From contig DASWEL010000058.1 in assembly GCA_036394755.1 (NCBI GenBank), positions 15,827 through 79,826 on the forward strand: a stretch of 64,000 nt of DNA, read 5' to 3'. The DNA comes from Gemmatimonadales bacterium. Lineage in GTDB: Bacteria; Gemmatimonadota; Gemmatimonadetes; Gemmatimonadales; GWC2-71-9. Below, piece after piece: positions 1 through 56,328 of this stretch (positions within the stretch are counted from its first letter, which is position 1; every line of letters begins with the position of its first letter). The notes under the pieces are model-generated. The model was given only the letters and a program-made list of their open reading frames with translations, had not been told where the DNA came from and ran no database searches. Made by a program: the position numbers and the translations under genes.

Positions 1-1185
1 GCCTGGCAAATCACGAGTAATTCTTGGGAGTACACCGGCGATGGCCACGCCCTGGCCTATGACGCGGGCGCCGAGCTGATCGACATGGAGTTCGTGCAGT
101 TCCATCCGACGGGGATGGTGTGGCCGCCGAGTGTGCGCGGGATTCTCGTAACCGAAGGCGTGCGCGGCGAAGGCGGCGTCCTCAAGAACTCGGCGGGCGA
201 GCGGTTCATGTTCCGCTACATGCCCGACATGTTCAAGGGCGACTACGCCGAGACCGAAGCGGAGTCCGACGCGTGGGTGCAGGGCGATCGCAAGAAAAAC
301 CGCCGGCCGCCCGAGCTGCTGACGCGCGACGTGGTCGCGAAGGCGATCACGAAAGAAATCGCGGAAGGGCGGGGCACGCCGCATGGCGGCGTCTTCCTCG
401 ACATCGCTTCAAAACAAGGCCCGGACTACATCAAGCAGAAGCTGCCGAGCATGTACCACCAGTTCAAAGAGCTCGCGCAGGTGGACATCACGAAGGACCC
501 GATGGAAATCGGGCCCACGACCCATTACATGATGGGTGGCGTCAAAGTCGATGCGGAGACGCAGGAGTCGACGGTGCCCGGGCTCTTCGCCGCGGGCGAA
601 GTCGGCGGCGGGATGCACGGTGCCAATCGGCTCGGCGGCAACTCGCTCAGCGACTTGCTCGTTTTCGGACGCCGCGCCGGTCAGTACGCGGCGGGGAGGC
701 GCGGCGCGGCGCGGGCAATACCGGATGCCGAGGTCGAGCAAGCGATGAGGGAAGCACTGGAGCCGTTCGAGCACGACGGCGAGAATCCGTTCGCCGTTCA
801 GTCCGCTCTGCAGGCCGTGATGCAGCGTGACGCCGGGATCATCCGCGACAAGGCCGGCCTCCAAAACGCGCTCGCCGAGCTCGAGAAGCTCAAGGCGCGG
901 GCGCGGAAGGTGGGCGTTACGGGCAGCCGCGAATACAATCCGGGGTGGCACACCGCCATCGACCTGCAGTCCCTGGTCATCGTCTCCGAGGCGACCGCCC
1001 GCGCAGCCCTCGAGCGCACCGAGAGCCGCGGTGGTCACACGCGGAGCGACTATCCCGATTCCGACGAAAAGCAGGCGCGCGAGTTGGTCGTGATCAAGAA
1101 GGAAGGCAACCGCATGGCCGTGCGGCGCGAGCAGCAGCCCCCGATCCCACCGGAATTCCTGGCAATCATTAAGGAAAGCGTATGA
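1..1185 (+). CDS. sdhA: Succinate dehydrogenase/fumarate reductase flavoprotein subunit, C-terminal ~394 aa (5' end outside window)
   Basis: Frame open from base 1. Translation (EFVQFHPTG, GGNSLSDLLVFGRRAG, ESRGGHTRSDYP) is typical of SdhA/FrdA. Stop overlaps the next start as ATGA. Confidence 0.9.
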   Translation, partial: AWQITSNSWEYTGDGHALAYDAGAELIDMEFVQFHPTGMVWPPSVRGILVTEGVRGEGGVLKNSAGERFMFRYMPDMFKGDYAETEAESDAWVQGDRKKNRRPPELLTRDVVAKAITKEIAEGRGTPHGGVFLDIASKQGPDYIKQKLPSMYHQFKELAQVDITKDPMEIGPTTHYMMGGVKVDAETQESTVPGLFAAGEVGGGMHGANRLGGNSLSDLLVFGRRAGQYAAGRRGAARAIPDAEVEQAMREALEPFEHDGENPFAVQSALQAVMQRDAGIIRDKAGLQNALAELEKLKARARKVGVTGSREYNPGWHTAIDLQSLVIVSEATARAALERTESRGGHTRSDYPDSDEKQARELVVIKKEGNRMAVRREQQPPIPPEFLAIIKESV

Positions 1186-8520: not shown

Positions 8521-10589
8521 CTCGGACGGATCGTCGGATCGTCGGATGGACGGATGGAGTTCGCACGGTTCTGGTGATCGCAGCGCTATCCGCCAATCCG
8601 GCCATCCGCCAATCCGCCGCTCAGTCATTCGAGCAACGCCTGCTCGCCGTTCCCGACACCGCCAGCGTGCGCCAGATGTCGCGCGATCTCTCAGCCGTCC
8701 CACACATGGCCGGCACTCCGGCACAGGCGGCGACGCGCGACTACGTGCTCGACCGCATGAGGTCGTGGGGGATCGACGCATGGAGCAAAGAGTACACCAT
8801 CTATCTGCCCCAGCCGGACACGGTAGCCGCGTGGATTATCTCGGGCCGGCGGGCGACCCCGCTCGCGCTGGCCGAGCCGGGTAAAGGTCCCCAGATCCCG
8901 CCGTTCAACGGCTACACCGGGGACGGGGACGCGACGGCGGACGTCGTCTACGTCAACTACGGCCTCATCGAAGACTACAAGACACTCGATTCCCTCGGCG
9001 TCAGTGTGACAGGCAAGATCGCGATCGTCCGCTACGGCCGGTCTTTCCGCGGCATCAAGGCGCGCGAGGCGCAGAAGCGCGGCGCGGTGGGGCTCATCGT
9101 GTATTCCGATCCGCAGGAGGACGGCTACTTCCGGGGCGATGTGTACCCCAAGGGGCCGATGCGCAACGCGGACGGGATCCAGCGCGGCAGCATGATGAAC
9201 GGCAACGGCGATCCCACGACGCCGAGCTGGTCGTCCGTCGAAGGGGCGCGCCGCCTTCCCGAAGATTCGCTCGACATCCCCAAGATTCCGATCATCCCGA
9301 TGAGTTACGGAAACGCGCGCCGCTTCCTCGAGCCGATGGCCGGACCGTCCGTGCCGCAGGGCTGGCAGGGCGGGCTGCCGTTCCATTATCACGTGGGGCC
9401 GGGGCCGGCGCGCGCGCGGTTGCACGTGAAGACCGAGCGTGGCGCTCGGGCCTTCCATAAGATCTGGAACACCGTCGGCATGATCCGCGGCAGTCGTTGG
9501 CCGGATGAATGGGTTGTGGTCGGCGGCCACCGCGACGCCTGGGGACCGGGCGCGCGCGACAATGTGAGCGGCACTGTGTGTGTGCTCGAGACGGCGCGCG
9601 CGTTTGCGACGCTCGCGCGCGACGGCCAGAAGCCCGCGCGCACCGTCGTCTTCGCGACCTGGGACGCCGAGGAGTGGGGGCTCATCGGTTCGACGGAATG
9701 GGTCGAGGAGCTCGAGGATACGCTGCGCGCGCACGTCGTCGCCTACATCAATGAAGACGGCACGTTTTCTGGTCCGAGCTTCGGCGGTGGCGGCTCCCCG
9801 TCGCTCAAGCCGCTGCTGCGCGCGGCGACGCGCGTCGTGCCCGATCCGGTGGGGCCCGGCACTGTGTACGACGTCTGGCTTAAGGCCCACAACGGCGACA
9901 CGACTGCCCTCACGATGGGCAATCTGGGCGGAGGATCGGACTTTTCCGGCTTCTATCATCACCTGGGAATTCCGTCGGGCGGCATCGGCTTCGACGGGCC
10001 GGACGGCATCTACCACTCGATGTACGACTCCTACGACTGGATGACGCGCTTCGGCGATCCGGCATACAAGGCGCATCGCGCCGGCGCGCAGCTCGTGGCG
10101 GTGATCATGGGCCGCCTCGCCAACAGCGAGCTGGTGCCGCTCGACTACGCCGCGTTCGGCACGGAGATGGACGGCCTGGTCGCGCAGCTCGATTCCGGCA
10201 TCGCCAAGAAGCACTGGACCCAGTCGGTGAGCACGCAGCCATTGAAGGACGCGCTAGATCGTTTCACCGCGGTAGCTCGTGCCTTTGGAACGGCGCGTGA
10301 CAACGCCGGAGCAGTGGACTCCGCCCGCGCCCAGGCGGTGAATCAGGCGCTCATGTTGGTCGAGCGCCGTCTGACTCGGCCCGAGGGTCTCGTGAGCCGG
10401 CCGTGGTTCAAGAGCCTACAATTCGCGGCGGACATCGACAACGGCTACGCGACGATGGCGTTCCCAACGGTCAATGAGGCCATTCGCTATGCGGACGCCG
10501 CCGCGGCCAACAAGGAGCTCACGGATCTCGTGAATCGGGTCGACCAGGCCCGCGCCGCGCTCGTGGAAGCGGCGGCGGCTCTTCGCTAG
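8517..10589 (+). CDS. M28 family peptidase with PA and transferrin-receptor-like dimerisation domains (glutamate carboxypeptidase II-like)
   Basis: ATG 8517 in an ATGA overlap with the upstream stop. Motifs GGHRDAWGPGARDNVSG and ATWDAEEWGLIGS. The ORF-track start 8397 lies inside the previous gene. Confidence 0.8.
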   Translation: MTRTDRRIVGWTDGVRTVLVIAALSANPAIRQSAAQSFEQRLLAVPDTASVRQMSRDLSAVPHMAGTPAQAATRDYVLDRMRSWGIDAWSKEYTIYLPQPDTVAAWIISGRRATPLALAEPGKGPQIPPFNGYTGDGDATADVVYVNYGLIEDYKTLDSLGVSVTGKIAIVRYGRSFRGIKAREAQKRGAVGLIVYSDPQEDGYFRGDVYPKGPMRNADGIQRGSMMNGNGDPTTPSWSSVEGARRLPEDSLDIPKIPIIPMSYGNARRFLEPMAGPSVPQGWQGGLPFHYHVGPGPARARLHVKTERGARAFHKIWNTVGMIRGSRWPDEWVVVGGHRDAWGPGARDNVSGTVCVLETARAFATLARDGQKPARTVVFATWDAEEWGLIGSTEWVEELEDTLRAHVVAYINEDGTFSGPSFGGGGSPSLKPLLRAATRVVPDPVGPGTVYDVWLKAHNGDTTALTMGNLGGGSDFSGFYHHLGIPSGGIGFDGPDGIYHSMYDSYDWMTRFGDPAYKAHRAGAQLVAVIMGRLANSELVPLDYAAFGTEMDGLVAQLDSGIAKKHWTQSVSTQPLKDALDRFTAVARAFGTARDNAGAVDSARAQAVNQALMLVERRLTRPEGLVSRPWFKSLQFAADIDNGYATMAFPTVNEAIRYADAAAANKELTDLVNRVDQARAALVEAAAALR

Positions 10590-15105: not shown

Positions 15106-16370
15106 GCAAGCGCACCCTCGAGCTCGAGCTCGCCACCCCGGGCGTAGACGCCCAGGGCCGCGCGACGCGCGTCCCGCTCACCGCCGAGGGAGAGCCGGGT
15201 CTCGCCGAACAGCACATGCTCGTCAACATCGGCCCGCAACATCCCGCCACGCACGGCGTGCTGCGGCTGGTGGTCGAGCTCGATGGCGAGACCGTCGTGC
15301 GCTGCATCCCGCACCTCGGCTACCTGCACTCCGGCTTCGAGAAGCTCGGCGAGTACCGGCACTACAACCAGATCATCCCGCTCACCGACCGGACCGACTA
15401 TTTGTCGCCGATGGCGAACAACGTCGGCTTCGCTATGGCCGCCGAGAAGTTGATGGGGATCGAGATCACGCCGCGCTGCACGGTGTTGCGCGTGATCGCC
15501 TGCGAGATGAGCCGCATCATTTCGCATATGGTATGGCTGGGCACGACGTCGATCGACCTCGGCGCGTTCACGCCGTTCCTGTGGGCCTTCCAGGAGCGCG
15601 AGCGGATCTACGATCTCCAGGAGATGTGGACCGGCGCCCGGCTGACGACGAGCCTCACCCGCGTCGGCGGGCTGATGGCCGACATTCCGGACGGGTTCGT
15701 CGAGAAACTACGTCACTTCACGCAAACCTTCCCGAAGACGCTGGGCGAAATCGATCGGGTGCTCACGCGCAACGCCGTGTGGGCGGGCCGCACGCAGGGC
15801 GTCGGCGCGCTCACCGCGGCCGAGGCGATCAATCATTCGCTCTCCGGCCCGATGCTGCGCGCCAGCGGCGTAGCATACGACGTCCGCAAGGACAAGCCAT
15901 ATCTGGGCTACGAGACCTACGACTTCGATATCGTGGTGGGCGAACACGGCGACGTGTTCGACCGCTATCTCGTGCGCCTCGAGGAGTGTCACCAGTCGAA
16001 CCGGATTCTCCAGCAGGCGCTCGACCGGCTGCCGGACGGCCCGATCAACGTGGACGACCCCAGAGTCATTCTCCCCTCCAAAACGCGCGCCATGAGCGAC
16101 ATGGAAGCCATGATCTTCCACTTCAAGCAGGTCATGGAAGGCGTGAAAGCGCCGGTGGGCGAGGCGTACGTCGGCATCGAGAATCCCAAGGGCGAGCTCG
16201 GCACCTACCTCGTGTCCGACGGGACGGCAAAGCCGGTGCGCTGGCGCATCCGGCCGCCCTCCTTCATCAATCTGTCCGCATTGCCCCGGATGGCCCAAGG
16301 CCATCTGCTGTCCGACCTGATCGCGATCAACGCGTCCGTGGACATCGTAATGGGTGAGGTCGATCGATGA
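15102..16370 (+). CDS. nuoD: NADH-quinone oxidoreductase subunit D
   Basis: NIGPQHPATHGVLRL and a conserved C-terminal IMGEVDR. Confidence 0.95.
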   Translation: MSKRTLELELATPGVDAQGRATRVPLTAEGEPGLAEQHMLVNIGPQHPATHGVLRLVVELDGETVVRCIPHLGYLHSGFEKLGEYRHYNQIIPLTDRTDYLSPMANNVGFAMAAEKLMGIEITPRCTVLRVIACEMSRIISHMVWLGTTSIDLGAFTPFLWAFQERERIYDLQEMWTGARLTTSLTRVGGLMADIPDGFVEKLRHFTQTFPKTLGEIDRVLTRNAVWAGRTQGVGALTAAEAINHSLSGPMLRASGVAYDVRKDKPYLGYETYDFDIVVGEHGDVFDRYLVRLEECHQSNRILQQALDRLPDGPINVDDPRVILPSKTRAMSDMEAMIFHFKQVMEGVKAPVGEAYVGIENPKGELGTYLVSDGTAKPVRWRIRPPSFINLSALPRMAQGHLLSDLIAINASVDIVMGEVDR

Positions 16371-38961: not shown

Positions 38962-40208
38962 TGACGCGCCCCCCCCGGCGGGTGGCGGTCACGGGGATGG
39001 GGCTCGTGACGCCGGTTGGAAACGATGTCGCGAGCACTTGGGCCGCCCTCGTCGCCGGGGAGTCGGGGGCGGGTCCGATCACCCGGTTCGATTCCGAGAA
39101 ACTGGCCGTGCACTTCGCCTGCGAAGTGAAGGGGTACGACCCCCTGCAGTACATCGACAAGAAGGAAGCCCGCCGCTACGACCTGTTCTCCCAGTTCGCC
39201 ATGGGCGCCGCCGTGCAGGCCGTGCGCGATTCCTGCCTCGAAAAAAGTCCGCTCGATCCCAAACGGATCGGTGTGATCATCGGCACCGGCACGGGTGGTA
39301 TCGCGACGTTCGAAGAGAACATGCGGATGTACATCGAGAAGGGACCGGACCGCGTGTCGCCCTTCTTCGTGCCGATGTTCATGGCCAACGTGGCCTCCGC
39401 CATCGTCTCGATGCGCTTCGGCTTCCAGGGACCGAACTACTGCACGGTGTCGGCCTGCGCGTCCTCCGGACATGCCCTCGGCGATGCGTTCGACCTGATC
39501 CGGGAAGGGAAGGCCGACGTCATGGTCGCCGGCGGGTCGGAAGCAGCCATCACCCCGCTGTCGATCGCCAGCTTCGCCAACATGAAAGCGTTGTCCACCC
39601 GCAACGACGACCCGAAGACCGCGAGCCGGCCGTTCGACCGGGACCGCGATGGGTTTGTGATGGGCGACGGGGCCGCGGTCGTGATCCTCGAGGAGTGGGA
39701 GCGTGCGAAGGGGCGGGGCGCGAACATCGTCGCCGAGATCGTCGGCTACGGCGCAACTGCCGACGCGCATCACATCACCGCGCCGGCGCCCGATGGATCG
39801 GGGGCGCAGGAAGCGATGCGATTGGCGATGCAGAGCGGCGGCATCCGCCCCGAGCAGGTCGGCTACATCAACGCGCACGGTACGTCCACGCCGCATGGCG
39901 ACGCGGCCGAGACGAACGCCGTGAAGGCCGTGTTCGGTGACCACGCGCGCAAGCTGATCTTCGGTTCGACCAAATCGATGAGCGGCCACCTGCTCGGCGC
40001 CGCCGGGGCGTTCGAGTTCGCCATCTGCGCGCTCGCGCTGCAGAACGGCGTGATCCCGCCGACGATCAATCAGTTCCATCCCGATCCCGCGTGCGATCTG
40101 GATTCGGCGCCGAATCATGCCGTCAAGCGCCAGGTCGACGTCGCCCTGTCGAACTCATTCGGGTTCGGAGGGCACAACGTGACGCTGGCGGTCAAGAGGG
40201 TCGCGTGA
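38961..40208 (+). CDS. fabF: 3-oxoacyl-ACP synthase II
   Basis: ACASSG, HGTSTP and GHLLGAAG motifs. GTG overlaps the acpP stop. Confidence 0.95.
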   Translation: MTRPPRRVAVTGMGLVTPVGNDVASTWAALVAGESGAGPITRFDSEKLAVHFACEVKGYDPLQYIDKKEARRYDLFSQFAMGAAVQAVRDSCLEKSPLDPKRIGVIIGTGTGGIATFEENMRMYIEKGPDRVSPFFVPMFMANVASAIVSMRFGFQGPNYCTVSACASSGHALGDAFDLIREGKADVMVAGGSEAAITPLSIASFANMKALSTRNDDPKTASRPFDRDRDGFVMGDGAAVVILEEWERAKGRGANIVAEIVGYGATADAHHITAPAPDGSGAQEAMRLAMQSGGIRPEQVGYINAHGTSTPHGDAAETNAVKAVFGDHARKLIFGSTKSMSGHLLGAAGAFEFAICALALQNGVIPPTINQFHPDPACDLDSAPNHAVKRQVDVALSNSFGFGGHNVTLAVKRVA

Positions 40209-41443
40209 GCCTCCGACCTATCGGCGACAAGGTCGAACGCGGCGAGCGATTGACGCGCGAGGATGGCCTCGCGCTTTTTGCATCTGCCGACTTGTTGAGC
40301 ATCGGGCGCCTCGCCGATCTCGCCAACCGACGGAAGAACGGCGACCGGGTCTACTTCGCAGCGAATCAGCACATCAATCCGACCAACGTCTGCATCCTGC
40401 GCAACACCTGCGTCTTTTGCTCCTTCGCGCGCATGCCGAAGGAGGACGGCGCCTACACGCGAAGCCTCGAGGAGGTCTTCGCCGAGGCCGACGCGGCGCG
40501 GGAAAATCCGACGCGCGAGTTCCACATCGTGGGCGGCCTGCATCCCAAGCTGCGGCTCGAGTATTACGTCGACATGTTCCGCGGCCTCAAAGCACGCCAT
40601 CCGCAGGTCATGATCAAGGCGCTGACCGCGGTCGAAGTCGCGCATCTGGCCCGGATCGAGGGCATGAGCACACGCGAGGTGTTGGTCGCGATGAAGGAAG
40701 CGGGCGTCAGCACGCTTCCCGGCGGCGGCGCCGAAGTGTTCTCGCCGGCGGCGCGGGCGACGATCGCCGACCGGAAGCTCACCGGCGACGAGTGGCTCGC
40801 CGTCCATCGCGAAGCCCATCAGCTCGGCATGCCGTCGAACTGCACGATGCTCTACGGCCATGTCGAAACGCTCGCGGACCGCGTGGACCATCTGCTGGCG
40901 CTGCGCGCCCTCCAGGACGAGACCGGCGGATTCCTCACGTATATCCCGCTCGCGTACCATCCCGACCACAACGAGCTGGGGGAGACGCTGGGACGCACGG
41001 GTACGGCCACCACCGGCTTTGACGACCTCAAGAACATCGCTGTGGGACGGCTGCTGCTCGACAACATCCCGCACGTGAAGACGCATTGGCCGATGGTGAC
41101 GCCGTTCATCTCACAGGTCGCTCTCACGTTCGGCTGCGACGACCTCGAGGGCACGGTCGTGTTCGAGCGCGTCTATCACGAGGCCGGCGCGCCCACCCCG
41201 ATGTGGCTGTCCTACGACGAGATTGTGACGCTGATCCGCGGGGCGGGGAAAGAGCCGGTCGAACGCGATTCGCTCTATCAAACTGTGCGGACGTTCGAGG
41301 GGTACGTGCCCAAGCCGAGCGGCCCGGCGGTGCGGCCCGATGGCCCGGCGCCACAGGGCGCGCTGTTCCAGATCGAGCATCGACACAGGGCTGCGGCTCG
41401 GCTCAGGCAACCAATGCCAACGGTCGTGGATGGTGCGGAATGA
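40205..41443 (+). CDS. mqnE: Radical SAM futalosine-pathway enzyme, most like aminofutalosine synthase MqnE
   Basis: GTG 40205 in a GTGA overlap. KVERGERLTREDGLALF N-terminus and CILRNTCVFCSF radical-SAM cluster. The MqnE versus MqnC assignment between the two paralogues is from memory and could be swapped. Confidence 0.7.
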   Translation: MSLRPIGDKVERGERLTREDGLALFASADLLSIGRLADLANRRKNGDRVYFAANQHINPTNVCILRNTCVFCSFARMPKEDGAYTRSLEEVFAEADAARENPTREFHIVGGLHPKLRLEYYVDMFRGLKARHPQVMIKALTAVEVAHLARIEGMSTREVLVAMKEAGVSTLPGGGAEVFSPAARATIADRKLTGDEWLAVHREAHQLGMPSNCTMLYGHVETLADRVDHLLALRALQDETGGFLTYIPLAYHPDHNELGETLGRTGTATTGFDDLKNIAVGRLLLDNIPHVKTHWPMVTPFISQVALTFGCDDLEGTVVFERVYHEAGAPTPMWLSYDEIVTLIRGAGKEPVERDSLYQTVRTFEGYVPKPSGPAVRPDGPAPQGALFQIEHRHRAAARLRQPMPTVVDGAE

Positions 41444-41527
41444 TCGACACTCTGAAGAGTGTCCCCAATAGATCACTGCCCTTAAAGGGCAGTGCATCAC
41501 TGGGCCCACGCTTGAGCGTGTGGACAC
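41444..41527 (+). repeat. Intercistronic three-hairpin repeat element, copy 1
   Basis: About 79% identical by hand alignment to 55727-55810. Hairpins: GACACTC/GAGTGTC (41446-41463), CACTGCCC/GGGCAGTG (41474-41494), CACGC/GCGTG (41507-41520). Confidence 0.75.
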
Positions 41528-41528
41528 C

Positions 41529-42332
41529 ATGAAGATCGGGCGCATCGGCTATATCAACTGCGCGCCGGTCTATGGGGCGATCGACCGTGGCGTCGTGGCG
41601 CTGCCGCCAGGTGGCGAGCTCGTCACCGGCACACCCGCCGAGCTGAACGATTTGCTCGTCGCGGGCGAGCTGGACATGAGCGTGATCAGCGCGATCGAGT
41701 ACGCACGCCACGCCAAAGACCTGGTGCTCCTGCCGGAGCTCGCCATTTCCTGCGACGGACCGGTAAGAAGCGTGGCACTGTTTAGTCGTCGGACGGTCGG
41801 ACAGTTGGACGGTCGGACGGTGCTGCTGTCGGCGTCGTCGCGGACGTCGGTTGCCCTACTCGAGCTCCTGTGCCGCGACGTGTGGAAGATCAAACCGCGT
41901 TTCGCCGAAGCTCGCGCTGAGGCCCAAGACCTCGACGCGCTGGCCGCGCTCCCGCATGAGGCCGTGCTCGTGATTGGGGACGCCGCCCTCGCCCTCGCGG
42001 CCAAAGGGACGTATCCGCATCGCTACGATCTGGGTGAGGAGTGGAAGCGCTGGACCCGCCAACCGTTCGTGTTCGCGGTCTGGGCAGCCCAGCGATCGGC
42101 TGACCCCGGCGCCGTGCGCCGGGGTCACACAGCCCTGCTTACCTCCCGTGCGTGGGGCCTTGGCCACCTCGACGATCTCGCCGCCGAGGCGTCGAACAAG
42201 ACCGGAGTCCCTGTTGCGACATGTCGCGAGTACCTGGGTGGCCTCGACTACGCGTTCAGCGACCAACACCGCACGGCGCTGACGGACTTTCTGCGGCGCG
42301 CCGGCACGCCGCAATTCGTGCAGGTAGCCTGA
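41529..42332 (+). CDS. mqnA: Chorismate dehydratase MqnA (menaquinone biosynthesis via futalosine)
   Basis: MKIGRIGYINCAPVY N-terminus typical of MqnA. Alternative GTG start at 41520. Confidence 0.8.
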   Translation: MKIGRIGYINCAPVYGAIDRGVVALPPGGELVTGTPAELNDLLVAGELDMSVISAIEYARHAKDLVLLPELAISCDGPVRSVALFSRRTVGQLDGRTVLLSASSRTSVALLELLCRDVWKIKPRFAEARAEAQDLDALAALPHEAVLVIGDAALALAAKGTYPHRYDLGEEWKRWTRQPFVFAVWAAQRSADPGAVRRGHTALLTSRAWGLGHLDDLAAEASNKTGVPVATCREYLGGLDYAFSDQHRTALTDFLRRAGTPQFVQVA

Positions 42333-51525: not shown

Positions 51526-54724
<3,199 letters not shown>

Positions 54725-54732
<8 letters not shown>

Positions 54733-55726
54733 GCCGGCGCGTGCTTCGACCCCTCAGACGGGGGCCAAGCAACTGGTCGATCGCGGCAAACGGGTGCTCG
54801 CGCTCGAGGCCGCGGCCGTACAGCGCCTGGCCGATACGCTCGGGCCGGCGTTCGCCCGCGCCATCGAGATCCTCGCCGCGGCGACAGGGCGCGTGATCGT
54901 GTCGGGCGTGGGCAAGTCTGGTCTGATCGCCCGCAAGATCGCCGCGACGTTCACGTCCACGGGCACCCCGGCGATGTTCCTGCATCCCGTCGATTCGCTG
55001 CACGGCGACCTCGGCATCGTGAGCCGGGACGACGTCGGCATCGTCCTGTCGAAGAGCGGCGCCTCCGATGAGCTGTTCGGCCTCGTCAATCAATTGAAGC
55101 GTCTCGGCGTACCGATCATCGCGCTGACAGGCGATGCCGATTCGCCGCTGGGCCGGCAGGCGACCGTCGTGCTCGATGCTGCGGTCGCCGATGAAGCCTG
55201 CCCGGAAACCCTCGCGCCGACCGCGAGCACAACCGTCGCGCTCGCGTTGGGCGACGCGCTCGCGGTGACGCTGCTCGAAGTCAAAGGCTTTCGCCGCGAG
55301 GATTTCGCCGCGCTGCATCCCGGCGGCGTCTTGGGACGCAAACTGCTGCTACGCGTCGCCGACGTCATGCTCACACAGGATCTGCCGCTGCTCACTCCGG
55401 ACCGCCCGATGCGGGAGTGTGTGGTGCTGCTCGCCGAGAAGCGCGGCACCGTCGCGGTGGTGGAGGCCAGCGGCAAGACGTTGACCGGCGTCGTCACCGC
55501 AGGGGATCTGACTCGGCTCATGGAGAAGACGGACAGGTTCCTCGACACACCCGTCCGCGACGTCATGACCCGGACGCCGAAGGCGACGACGGCGGAGGAG
55601 CTGGCGAGCGCCGCGGTGAGTCTCATGGAACGCCACGGCATCATGGCGCTGCCGGTACTCGATGGTGACAAGAACGTGGTGGGAATCGTGCACCTGCATG
55701 ATTTGATGAAAGCGGGCGCGGTGTGA
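54725..55726 (+). CDS. kdsD: Arabinose-5-phosphate isomerase (KpsF/GutQ/KdsD; SIS plus CBS pair)
   Basis: SGVGKSG SIS motif and two C-terminal CBS repeats. Start is GTG 54725 or GTG 54701. Confidence 0.88.
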
Positions 55727-55810
55727 TTCGACACCCTGAAGGGTGCGCCCAGAAAATCACTGCCCTTAAGGGCAGCGCTGCGCCGAGCGCACGCTTGAGC
55801 GTGTCGATAC
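55727..55810 (+). repeat. Intercistronic three-hairpin repeat element, copy 2
   Basis: Aligns with 41444-41527. Hairpins: CACCC/GGGTG (55732-55745), CTGCCC/GGGCAG (55760-55775), CACGC/GCGTG (55790-55803). Confidence 0.75.
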
Positions 55811-56328
55811 TCATCGGGCTGCTCCTCTTTGGGGCCTGCAAGAGCGGCACTCCCGTGACCGCGACCCAGGCAGTGCTCGACAGCGCCGACCAGGTGCTGG
55901 TCGGGATGACCCACTACGTCACGGACGCCGGCGTATTACGGGCGCGAGTCCGCGCCGATACCGCGTACTTCTTCTCGAACACCCAGCGCGCCGAGCTGCG
56001 CAACGTGCACGTGACCTTCTATGACGAGACGGGGAAACCGACGTCGACGCTGACCTCGCACGAAGGAACGCATCAGTGGCGCACGGGTGACATGGAGGCC
56101 CGCGGCAACGTCATCGTCATCCGTGACAAAGATGGCGCGACGATGAAGACCGCCGTGATGGATTACAGCCAGGTGCGCAACCAGGTGAGCTCCGACAAGA
56201 GCTTCGTATGGGATGAGCCTGGCCGTCACGTCGAAGGTGACGGGTTCACATCCGATCCAGAATTCAAGAAGATCACCGCCAAGAGGCCGCACGGCACTGG
56301 CGGGCAGTTCCTCTTGCCAAACCAATGA
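55801..56328 (+). CDS. lptC: LPS export system protein LptC (probable start GTG 55801; ORF-track start 55723 reads through the repeat element)
   Basis: OstA/LptC-like beta-jellyroll sequence (AELRNVHVTFYDETGKPTSTLTSHEGT). GTG 55801 gives MSILIGLLLFGAC, a signal/lipobox-like N-terminus. Confidence 0.75.
   Translation: MSILIGLLLFGACKSGTPVTATQAVLDSADQVLVGMTHYVTDAGVLRARVRADTAYFFSNTQRAELRNVHVTFYDETGKPTSTLTSHEGTHQWRTGDMEARGNVIVIRDKDGATMKTAVMDYSQVRNQVSSDKSFVWDEPGRHVEGDGFTSDPEFKKITAKRPHGTGGQFLLPNQ

Follow-up and report, generated by a model that had tools for sequence, protein, structure and literature searches.

A hairpin-forming repeat, probably of the mobile REP type and linked to a Y1 transposase gene, in a genus of Gemmatimonadales

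Two segments of the window (the whole 64,000-nt stretch of DNA analysed here, which lies on contig C58 of G000, a 3.78-Mb, 357-contig Gemmatimonadales assembly with 65.8% G+C and 89.6% completeness) most likely represent a non-coding, hairpin-forming repeat of the REP/REPIN kind that is confined to one genus, the second copy being probably translated in part, and there is a strong case for regarding the repeat as a mobile element of REP type linked to a Y1 gene. Since copies bracket the gene of an IS200-type enzyme in related genomes, the repeat is no new regulatory RNA but belongs, as a version specific to this lineage, with the REP/transposase repeats already known. The original prediction, made from the letters of the window without database searches, had recognised a structured dispersed repeat that does not stem from gene duplication, which is borne out, and had offered a REP/BIME-like element as one option, which we can now adopt: copies bracket Y1 genes in relatives, and sites are filled in one genome and empty in its sister. 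It had been unable to place the repeat in any known family; the kind can now be given as REP/REPtron-like, while the sequence family itself indeed appears to be undescribed.

Copy 1 had been predicted to lie between the TGA of mqnE (41441-41443) and the ATG of mqnA (41529), and copy 2 to follow the TGA of kdsD (55724-55726); both placements are right, as are the three hairpins of copy 1 (H1 at 41446-41463, H2 at 41474-41494 and H3 at 41507-41520; Table 1) and the names given to the neighbouring genes (MqnE, TIGR03700; MqnA, PF02621; KpsF/KdsD, TIGR00393; LptC, TIGR04409). Pairwise alignment also confirmed a T:A to C:G double change in H1 between the copies, but gave two 1-nt indels, at the left edge and within the H2 loop, where a single indel of 1 nt had been claimed. 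The intercistronic position holds for copy 1 and fails for copy 2, which overlaps the 5' coding end of lptC. The likeness of the two copies is far above chance: R1, a covariance model based on six copies (87 positions, 23 pairs), detects more copies in G000 at E values of 1e-14 to 5e-20.

Table 1. Features of the two repeat copies and their neighbouring genes (window positions).
Feature	Position	Strand	Evidence or remark
Repeat copy 1	41444-41528	both strands alike	Occupies the entire mqnE/mqnA spacer
Copy 1, H1 hairpin GACACTC-TGAA-GAGTGTC	41446-41463		Fold; pairing across 36 copies
Copy 1, P2 stem	41464-41504		CCCC (41464-41467) with GGGC (41501-41504), around extended H2; fold
Copy 1, extended H2 hairpin	41471-41498		Inside P2; fold; 94.4% paired across 36 copies
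Copy 1, H3 hairpin	41505-41523		Core CACGC-TTGA-GCGTG (41507-41520); inverted counterpart of H1; fold
Left ATGA, end of mqnE	41440-41443	+	Comparison of 27 genus genomes, filled or empty at this junction
Right ATGA, start of mqnA	41529-41532	+	Second copy of the overlap motif, duplicated at insertion
mqnE (aminofutalosine synthase)	40091-41443	+	TIGR03700, 461.7 bits versus cut-off 434.55
mqnA-type menaquinone biosynthesis gene	41529-42332	+	PF02621, 228 bits
Repeat copy 2	55727-55810	both strands alike	Directly 3' of the kdsD TGA; overlaps the 5' end of the lptC frame; site also occupied in five or six relatives
Copy 2, H1 CACCC-TGAA-GGGTG	55732-55745		Sequence
Copy 2, H2 CACTGCCC-TTAA-GGGCAGCG	55758-55777		Sequence
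Copy 2, H3 CACGC-TTGA-GCGTG	55790-55803		3' arm contains in-frame GTG 55801-55803, candidate lptC start
kdsD (KpsF-family arabinose-5-phosphate isomerase)	54701-55726	+	TIGR00393, 301 bits
lptC reading frame	55723-56328	+	From GTG overlapping the kdsD TGA, via copy 2, to the lipobox (LFGAC) and past it; TIGR04409, 71.6 bits

The unit measures ~85 nt and has the form of a 'clover' of five parts, namely P0, H1, P2 enclosing H2, and H3. P0 is a weak outer stem (GTTCCCAC...GTGGGAAC or TTCGACAC...GTGTCGAA; 72% paired across 36 copies), H1 has the consensus CA-NN-C TRAA G-NN-TG, and H2 is a longer hairpin (CACTGCNC TTAA GNGCAGTG) within P2, the loops reading TRAA in the 5' hairpin, TTAA in the central one and TTYA in the 3' one. 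As H3 is an inverted H1, the same set of hairpins appears on both DNA strands. The folding energy of copy 1, -42.4 kcal/mol (z -5.6) for the + strand and -46.4 kcal/mol (z -5.7) for the - strand, lies more than 5 standard deviations below that of shuffled sequences on either strand and was reached by none of 200 shuffles. Each copy is likewise matched by R1 on both strands (copy 1 with 98.5 bits on + and 81.8 bits on -, copy 2 with 93 and 81 bits), because the unit nearly equals its own reverse complement.

We assessed this structure on 36 copies from many genomes, aligned with MAFFT independently of the fit of the covariance model. Across these copies the arrangement P0 + H1 + P2[H2] + H3 is 88.9% paired, with 136 double-change cells compared to 58 ± 6 in shuffles (0 of 500 shuffles reached 136), and pairing falls to 30-42% when the partners are slid by 1-3 columns. 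H1 is 98.3% paired and H3 99.4%; each has two hypervariable stem positions (CG, GC, UA) at which complementarity is always kept, with 14 and 17 double changes in H1 and 8 and 22 in H3. P2 occurs in two co-varying states, GCCCA/TGGGC in subfamily A and GCTCGGC/GCCGAGC in subfamily B. Pairing-preserving variation, which had been set beforehand as a test, is present in the form of many double substitutions in the 36 copies. A REPIN-like long hairpin, in which H1 would pair with H3, performed no better than shuffles (16-24 of the 36 cells were unpaired at the variable positions), and the conserved form is therefore the 'clover' of local hairpins. Covariation in a palindromic DNA repeat, taken alone, is no proof of RNA function.

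BLAST and R1 together revealed seven full copies in G000 (C58 twice, C224, C320, C190, C17 and C110), a partial copy on C129 and three weak matches. The further copies to be expected of a dispersed repeat are thus present in this genome, and also in all 24 other genomes of the same genus that were searched, at 2-60 strand-hits each with R1, which corresponds to roughly 1-30 copies per genome, these being lower bounds with both strands counted. Outside the genus, the same search of 16 genomes that represent ten further genera of the order gave no match, and the repeat is restricted to its genus. Copy numbers are low, in the tens, compared to hundreds for classical REPs.

At locus L104 of genome G041, full-score copies (84 and 90 bits) stand on either side of the gene for a 128-aa Y1 (HUH) transposase, the stop codon of which falls within the H1 loop of the downstream copy, and in G016 and G021 the same gene (83-84% identity) adjoins a copy. 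When the L104 protein was searched against 185,579 species genomes, 30 loci were returned, 28 of them in records titled Gemmatimonadota, Gemmatimonadales or Gemmatimonadetes, or a MAG. R1 matches flank 27 of the 30 homologues, often in arrays (upstream plus downstream copies: 2 + 4 at L157, 1 + 3 at L162, 2 + 1 at L155), that is, in the layout of a REPtron. The identity of a transposase to the query and the best R1 score at its flanks rise together (Spearman rho 0.75, p 4e-6). Both flanks of the gene are common to nine genomes, and to three further pairs, and the closest transposase clade occurs in at least five different contexts. One gene per transposase clade was seen per genome, and solo non-coding units outnumber the gene. 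Within the arrays at L157:2113-2390 and L162:1898-2233 the unit is tandemly repeated together with a 33-38-nt linker, and some members are fragments of the H3 end only (GGGCCCACTCTTCAGAGTGGGA), the part most conserved across genomes.

A cognate transposase gene was not found in the G000 assembly (89.6% complete), where the best matches are 37-39% identical. G000 does contain two PF01797 (Y1_Tnp) genes, both bracketed by sister repeats with the H1-P2[H2]-H3 layout, which share the GCTCGGC/GCCGAGC stem but differ from the repeat of the window in their hairpin sequences. On C50, outside the window, sister repeats at 15506-15586 and 16037-16120 flank the Y1_Tnp gene at 15621-15947, their hairpins being GCGCC-CTGAGAG-GGCGC, GTGCGCC-CTTACAG-GGCGCAC and CCGGG-CTCTCAG-CCCGG. 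On C113, also outside the window (1-1130), a Y1_Tnp frame interrupted by two TAG codons, and hence probably a pseudogene, stands amid a larger repeat with four hairpins (CGCGG-CTGAAG-CCGCG ... CGCGGG-TTTA-CCCGCG), which occurs there in four copies and has the GCTCGGC stem in common.

The transposase is of the IS200/IS605 type (PF01797, 66 bits; NF033573, the IS200 model, 60.1 bits versus a cut-off of 55), and its nearest solved structures are ISDra2 TnpA (2xm3, E 5e-8), archaeal IS200 transposases and IS608 TnpA. It bears the motifs SHVH and DYIERQ, the latter of which fits Y---Q, the class-1 type tyrosine motif of Quentin et al. (PMC6006769). Canonical RAYT identity was considered and rejected (NF047646, 30.6 bits versus a cut-off of 80; E. 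coli RayT absent among PDB hits at E<=1), and no GT[AG]G (or CGTC) foot is conserved as a tetranucleotide in the 36-copy alignment. We therefore speak of a REP/RAYT-like way of working, from which two features that define the systems in the strict sense are missing.

Comparison of the mqnE/mqnA junction in 27 genomes of the genus revealed about 18 empty sites, seven filled ones and one with a 10-nt remnant (ATGAtttcacaagcATGA, locus L065 of G045). A single ATGA serves as both mqnE stop and mqnA start in the empty state (...GCCGAATGAGAATCGG...), and the order in the seven filled genomes is ATGA-element-ATGA; in three of the seven the right edge reads CGAATGA, identical to the empty-site sequence. 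All filled sites fall within one 14-genome clade of the MqnE+MqnA tree (92/91 support), and well-supported sisters in this tree differ at the junction: G012 is filled and G022 empty (95/89), G014 filled and G024 empty (100/98), G000 filled and G017 empty (86/88), and G046 carries subfamily A where G042 carries subfamily B (100/99). Hence there were either repeated exact losses, or repeated insertions and replacements at one spot. Four soil metagenomes contain the filled form; one weak joint (24-nt side, 161 nt skipped) does not amount to a clean empty site. Soil metagenome contigs also stack on a 35-nt stretch within mqnA (41787-41822), at a depth of 58-180 compared to ~10 in the flanks and with many unrelated loose ends, which suggests a short sequence common to many other organisms or loci.

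Presence and absence also differ elsewhere: some ten sites are filled in relatives and lack the element in G000 (C174, C86 with two sites, C277, C354, C299, C177, C233, C294, C352, C191 and C144). Short end-like remnants (TGAtattcgagacTCATGA, GTGTCCCCTCAAAC) were seen in G000 at C354:~9372-9425 and C174:~1979-2020, both at sites filled in relatives, and the one on C354 seems to form the start of the coding sequence of a divergent gene. The remnants on C354 and C174 and at L065 may be scars of excision or deletion; partial excision footprints have been reported for REPINs (PMC3116915).

In the four best-resolved comparisons of filled and empty sites, the element stands directly 3' of the TGA from a stop/start overlap, and at nine distinct loci a stop codon lies <=6 nt from one end of the element, often with a start codon 2-10 nt past the other. 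This placement may reflect target choice or survivorship; under survivorship, the insertions that remain in a compact genome would be those that leave both genes intact. Taken with the very stable fold and with the retention of several orthologous copies over long divergence (at mqnE/mqnA and kdsD/lptC in several species), the same placement could be read as the mark of a host-selected cis-acting RNA element in operon mRNAs, acting as a post-stop fold that uncouples translation, as an RNase site or as a barrier to 3' exonucleases, and E. coli REPs close behind stop codons have been reported to lower expression of the upstream gene. We consider this unlikely: (i) the same structure is present on both strands, with model scores that differ by only 1-12 bits; (ii) sister genomes lack the element at the same junction; (iii) copies also stand beside divergent and convergent genes and in arrays adjoining the transposase gene; and (iv) no Rfam model matched anywhere in the window at gathering score (the element gave only chance-level hits of <=15 bits at E<=10), and a promoter and terminator scan of copy 1 found neither. 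Orientation had been proposed as a feature to record; both strands were scored, but with such small differences the orientation relative to transcription is unusable. The roles in mRNA processing or stability and as a protein-binding site that had also been suggested are likewise unsupported, the strand symmetry arguing against a dedicated RNA; soil metatranscriptome runs yielded only three small contigs near the locus, none across the element, and are uninformative on an RNA role. Possibly, the long-kept orthologous copies have been exapted by the host.

Target sequence is duplicated on both sides of the element, over about 4-8 nt, at two sites: the mqnE/mqnA junction ((C)GAATGA, 4-7 nt) and one G014 site (~7 nt, TCCCTAG-like, compared to G000 C86:14678). 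No duplication is evident at the other sites compared, and no fixed duplication emerged. Transposition of single strands by IS200/IS605-type enzymes is not expected to duplicate the target, and the two duplications are thus in tension with an IS200-type mechanism. They would suit a MITE derived from a DDE-type insertion sequence, moved by cut-and-paste through terminal inverted repeats with short target duplications, its adjacency to Y1 genes being coincidental or secondary, and the ends of the unit are indeed inverted repeats (P0). This explanation is less probable still, as the duplications are inconsistent in length and presence, the Y1 homologues are flanked by the element at 27 of 30 loci with co-diverging sequences, and a search that was not exhaustive turned up no longer element with the same ends. 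Least of all do we expect a binding site for a dimeric DNA-binding protein (e.g. a nucleoid protein or regulator) or a cruciform site serving chromosome organisation, for which the near-perfect dyad symmetry and the binding of IHF and gyrase by classical REP/BIMEs might speak, but against which stand the difference in presence between sister genomes, the lack of any candidate protein among our findings, and stem positions that change freely so long as pairing holds, which points to recognition of a folded single strand and not of duplex sequence.

Copy 2 lies at a junction with a history of its own. In relatives free of an insert, the start codon of lptC is an ATG overlapping the TGA of kdsD, and the gene opens with a short lipoprotein signal peptide (MKRALVAVFLVVGAC...). 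Whatever the insert, none of the 29 genus genomes compared has a stop codon in frame between this ATG (or GTG) and the cysteine of the lipobox. The repeat family of the window occupies the site in G000, G017, G014, G010 and G019, and in truncated form in G041; many other genomes have unrelated heptamer-array and other palindromes there. In G000 the open frame begins at GTG 55723 and passes through copy 2, and the in-frame GTG 55801 in the 3' arm of H3 offers an alternative start. To judge from this open frame, copy 2 is probably read, at least in part, as lptC signal peptide, which would presumably be removed, and such removal would explain the tolerance of so many inserts. More generally, the region of the first 5-40 codons of lptC (window 55723-55840; L122-L150 in the 29 genomes) looks like a hot spot for differing palindromic inserts, always in the frame of the lipobox: the window's family, GGAGCAC-type heptamer arrays, CGTCGAGCA-type arrays and others, with none in some genomes.

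Our preferred reading, a REP-type repeat moved by its partner enzyme, would work as follows. That the Y1 enzyme moves the repeat we infer only from the adjacency of the two and from their co-divergence. The enzyme would recognise the hairpins in single-stranded DNA and cut and rejoin them in trans, thereby spreading and removing solo units; the seven to eight copies of G000 are probably relics, or are mobilised from an unassembled locus. Copies would survive where the harm is small. Copy 1 would have inserted into the ATGA stop/start overlap of mqnE and mqnA, and with the overlap duplicated both genes are intact. Copy 2 would have inserted just past the start of lptC, to be read in frame, at least partly, as an N-terminal part of the lipoprotein signal peptide. 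If the mRNA is affected at all, through uncoupled translation or altered stability, this would be a by-product. An 85-nt structured spacer in place of the ATGA overlap would be expected to abolish translational coupling.

Tentatively, and with more doubt than belief in the reading as a whole, one may go further and suppose that a REP/RAYT way of life arose independently in the Gemmatimonadales, based on an IS200-type TnpA and 'clover' units. The gene of a class-1 (IS200-type) TnpA would have settled in the genome as a single copy, its product mobilising a strand-symmetric three-hairpin 'clover' and not a GTAG-footed REP, and several sister pairs of enzyme and repeat would be built on the same plan, with the stem GCTCGGC/GCCGAGC conserved among them. 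The units would prefer sites directly after TGA at stop/start overlaps, duplicate the overlap and turn over rapidly there, and now and then one would be put to use, either to space the genes of an operon or to encode part of a signal peptide.

A candidate 'new regulatory RNA' is thereby replaced by a documented repeat family, which explains odd intergenic sequence and mis-called gene starts (lptC) in MAGs of soil Gemmatimonadales, and probably contig breaks too. It adds a case of an IS200-type enzyme, and not a canonical RAYT, in a REPtron-like layout, which bears on the origin of RAYTs from insertion-sequence transposases. The series of filled and empty sites at the ATGA overlap and the signal-peptide hot spot of lptC are natural experiments on how compact operons tolerate palindromic insertions.

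Among known systems, the palindromic elements of Rickettsia (RPE) and other palindromes that are translated within genes resemble copy 2 and its orthologues, which lie in an open lptC frame in all six carriers. Differences are that lptC is the only locus at which this family does so, with starts that are candidates only, and that the insert lies in a signal peptide that is probably cleaved and not in the mature protein.

Elements of the IS200/IS605 family (IS608, ISDra2) and their tnpA-less derivatives are akin to the present system in that they provide the nearest structures and the enzyme passes the IS200 model. Subterminal hairpins are the expected substrate of IS200/IS605 TnpA, and insertion leaves the target unduplicated and takes place 3' of a fixed sequence of four or five nucleotides. 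Here, by contrast, the gene is found once per clade per genome and in synteny in nine genomes, not as several near-identical copies of gene plus ends; it lies between arrays of whole palindromic units instead of a distinct left end and a distinct right end; and what is repeated is the non-coding unit, not the gene.

The class 3 and subclass 1.2 TnpA-Y1 proteins of Quentin et al., 2018, which have been proposed as intermediates between IS200 transposases and RAYTs (PMC6006769), share the class-1-like tyrosine motif and the low copy number, and are similar in behaviour. Compared by signature, class 3 (NHVH, YV[VI]xEQ, ~178 aa, CnGA foot) differs from the SHVH, YIERQ and 128 aa found here, where no CnGA foot was seen, and subclass 1.2 (Y---Q--HH), again compared by signature, does not match either and was reported without terminal structures (PMC6006769). 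Gemmatimonadota are not mentioned in that paper, and two of its supplementary files contain no entries for Gemmatimonadota, Solibacter or class 3.

The closest parallel is with REP/BIME repeats, and with REPINs and their RAYTs (TnpA-REP) in the REPtrons of E. coli and Pseudomonas (PMC3116915; PMC6006769), two papers that between them describe REPtrons, REPINs, compensatory changes in REPINs, partial excision footprints and the 'clover' form. The Gemmatimonadales system departs from these in that the enzyme, of 128 aa and with a Y-x3-Q motif, fits the IS200 model instead of the RAYT model, a GT[AG]G foot is missing from the repeat, copies number tens and not hundreds, and the host phylum is Gemmatimonadota; moreover, three local hairpins and an enclosing stem, with the outer hairpins unpaired with each other, take the place of a REP doublet in one long hairpin, and the flanked transposase is seen in relatives and was not found in G000 itself. 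Akin to REPtrons, it nonetheless consists of short, hairpin-forming extragenic repeats in multiple copies and of a Y1 HUH gene of low copy number, which keeps its synteny in some members of the clade and is flanked by arrays of its own repeat; repeat and enzyme diverge together, the two other Y1 genes of the window genome having sister repeats of their own; compensatory stem changes are common and partial footprints are found after loss; and, as with REPINs, both strands look the same.
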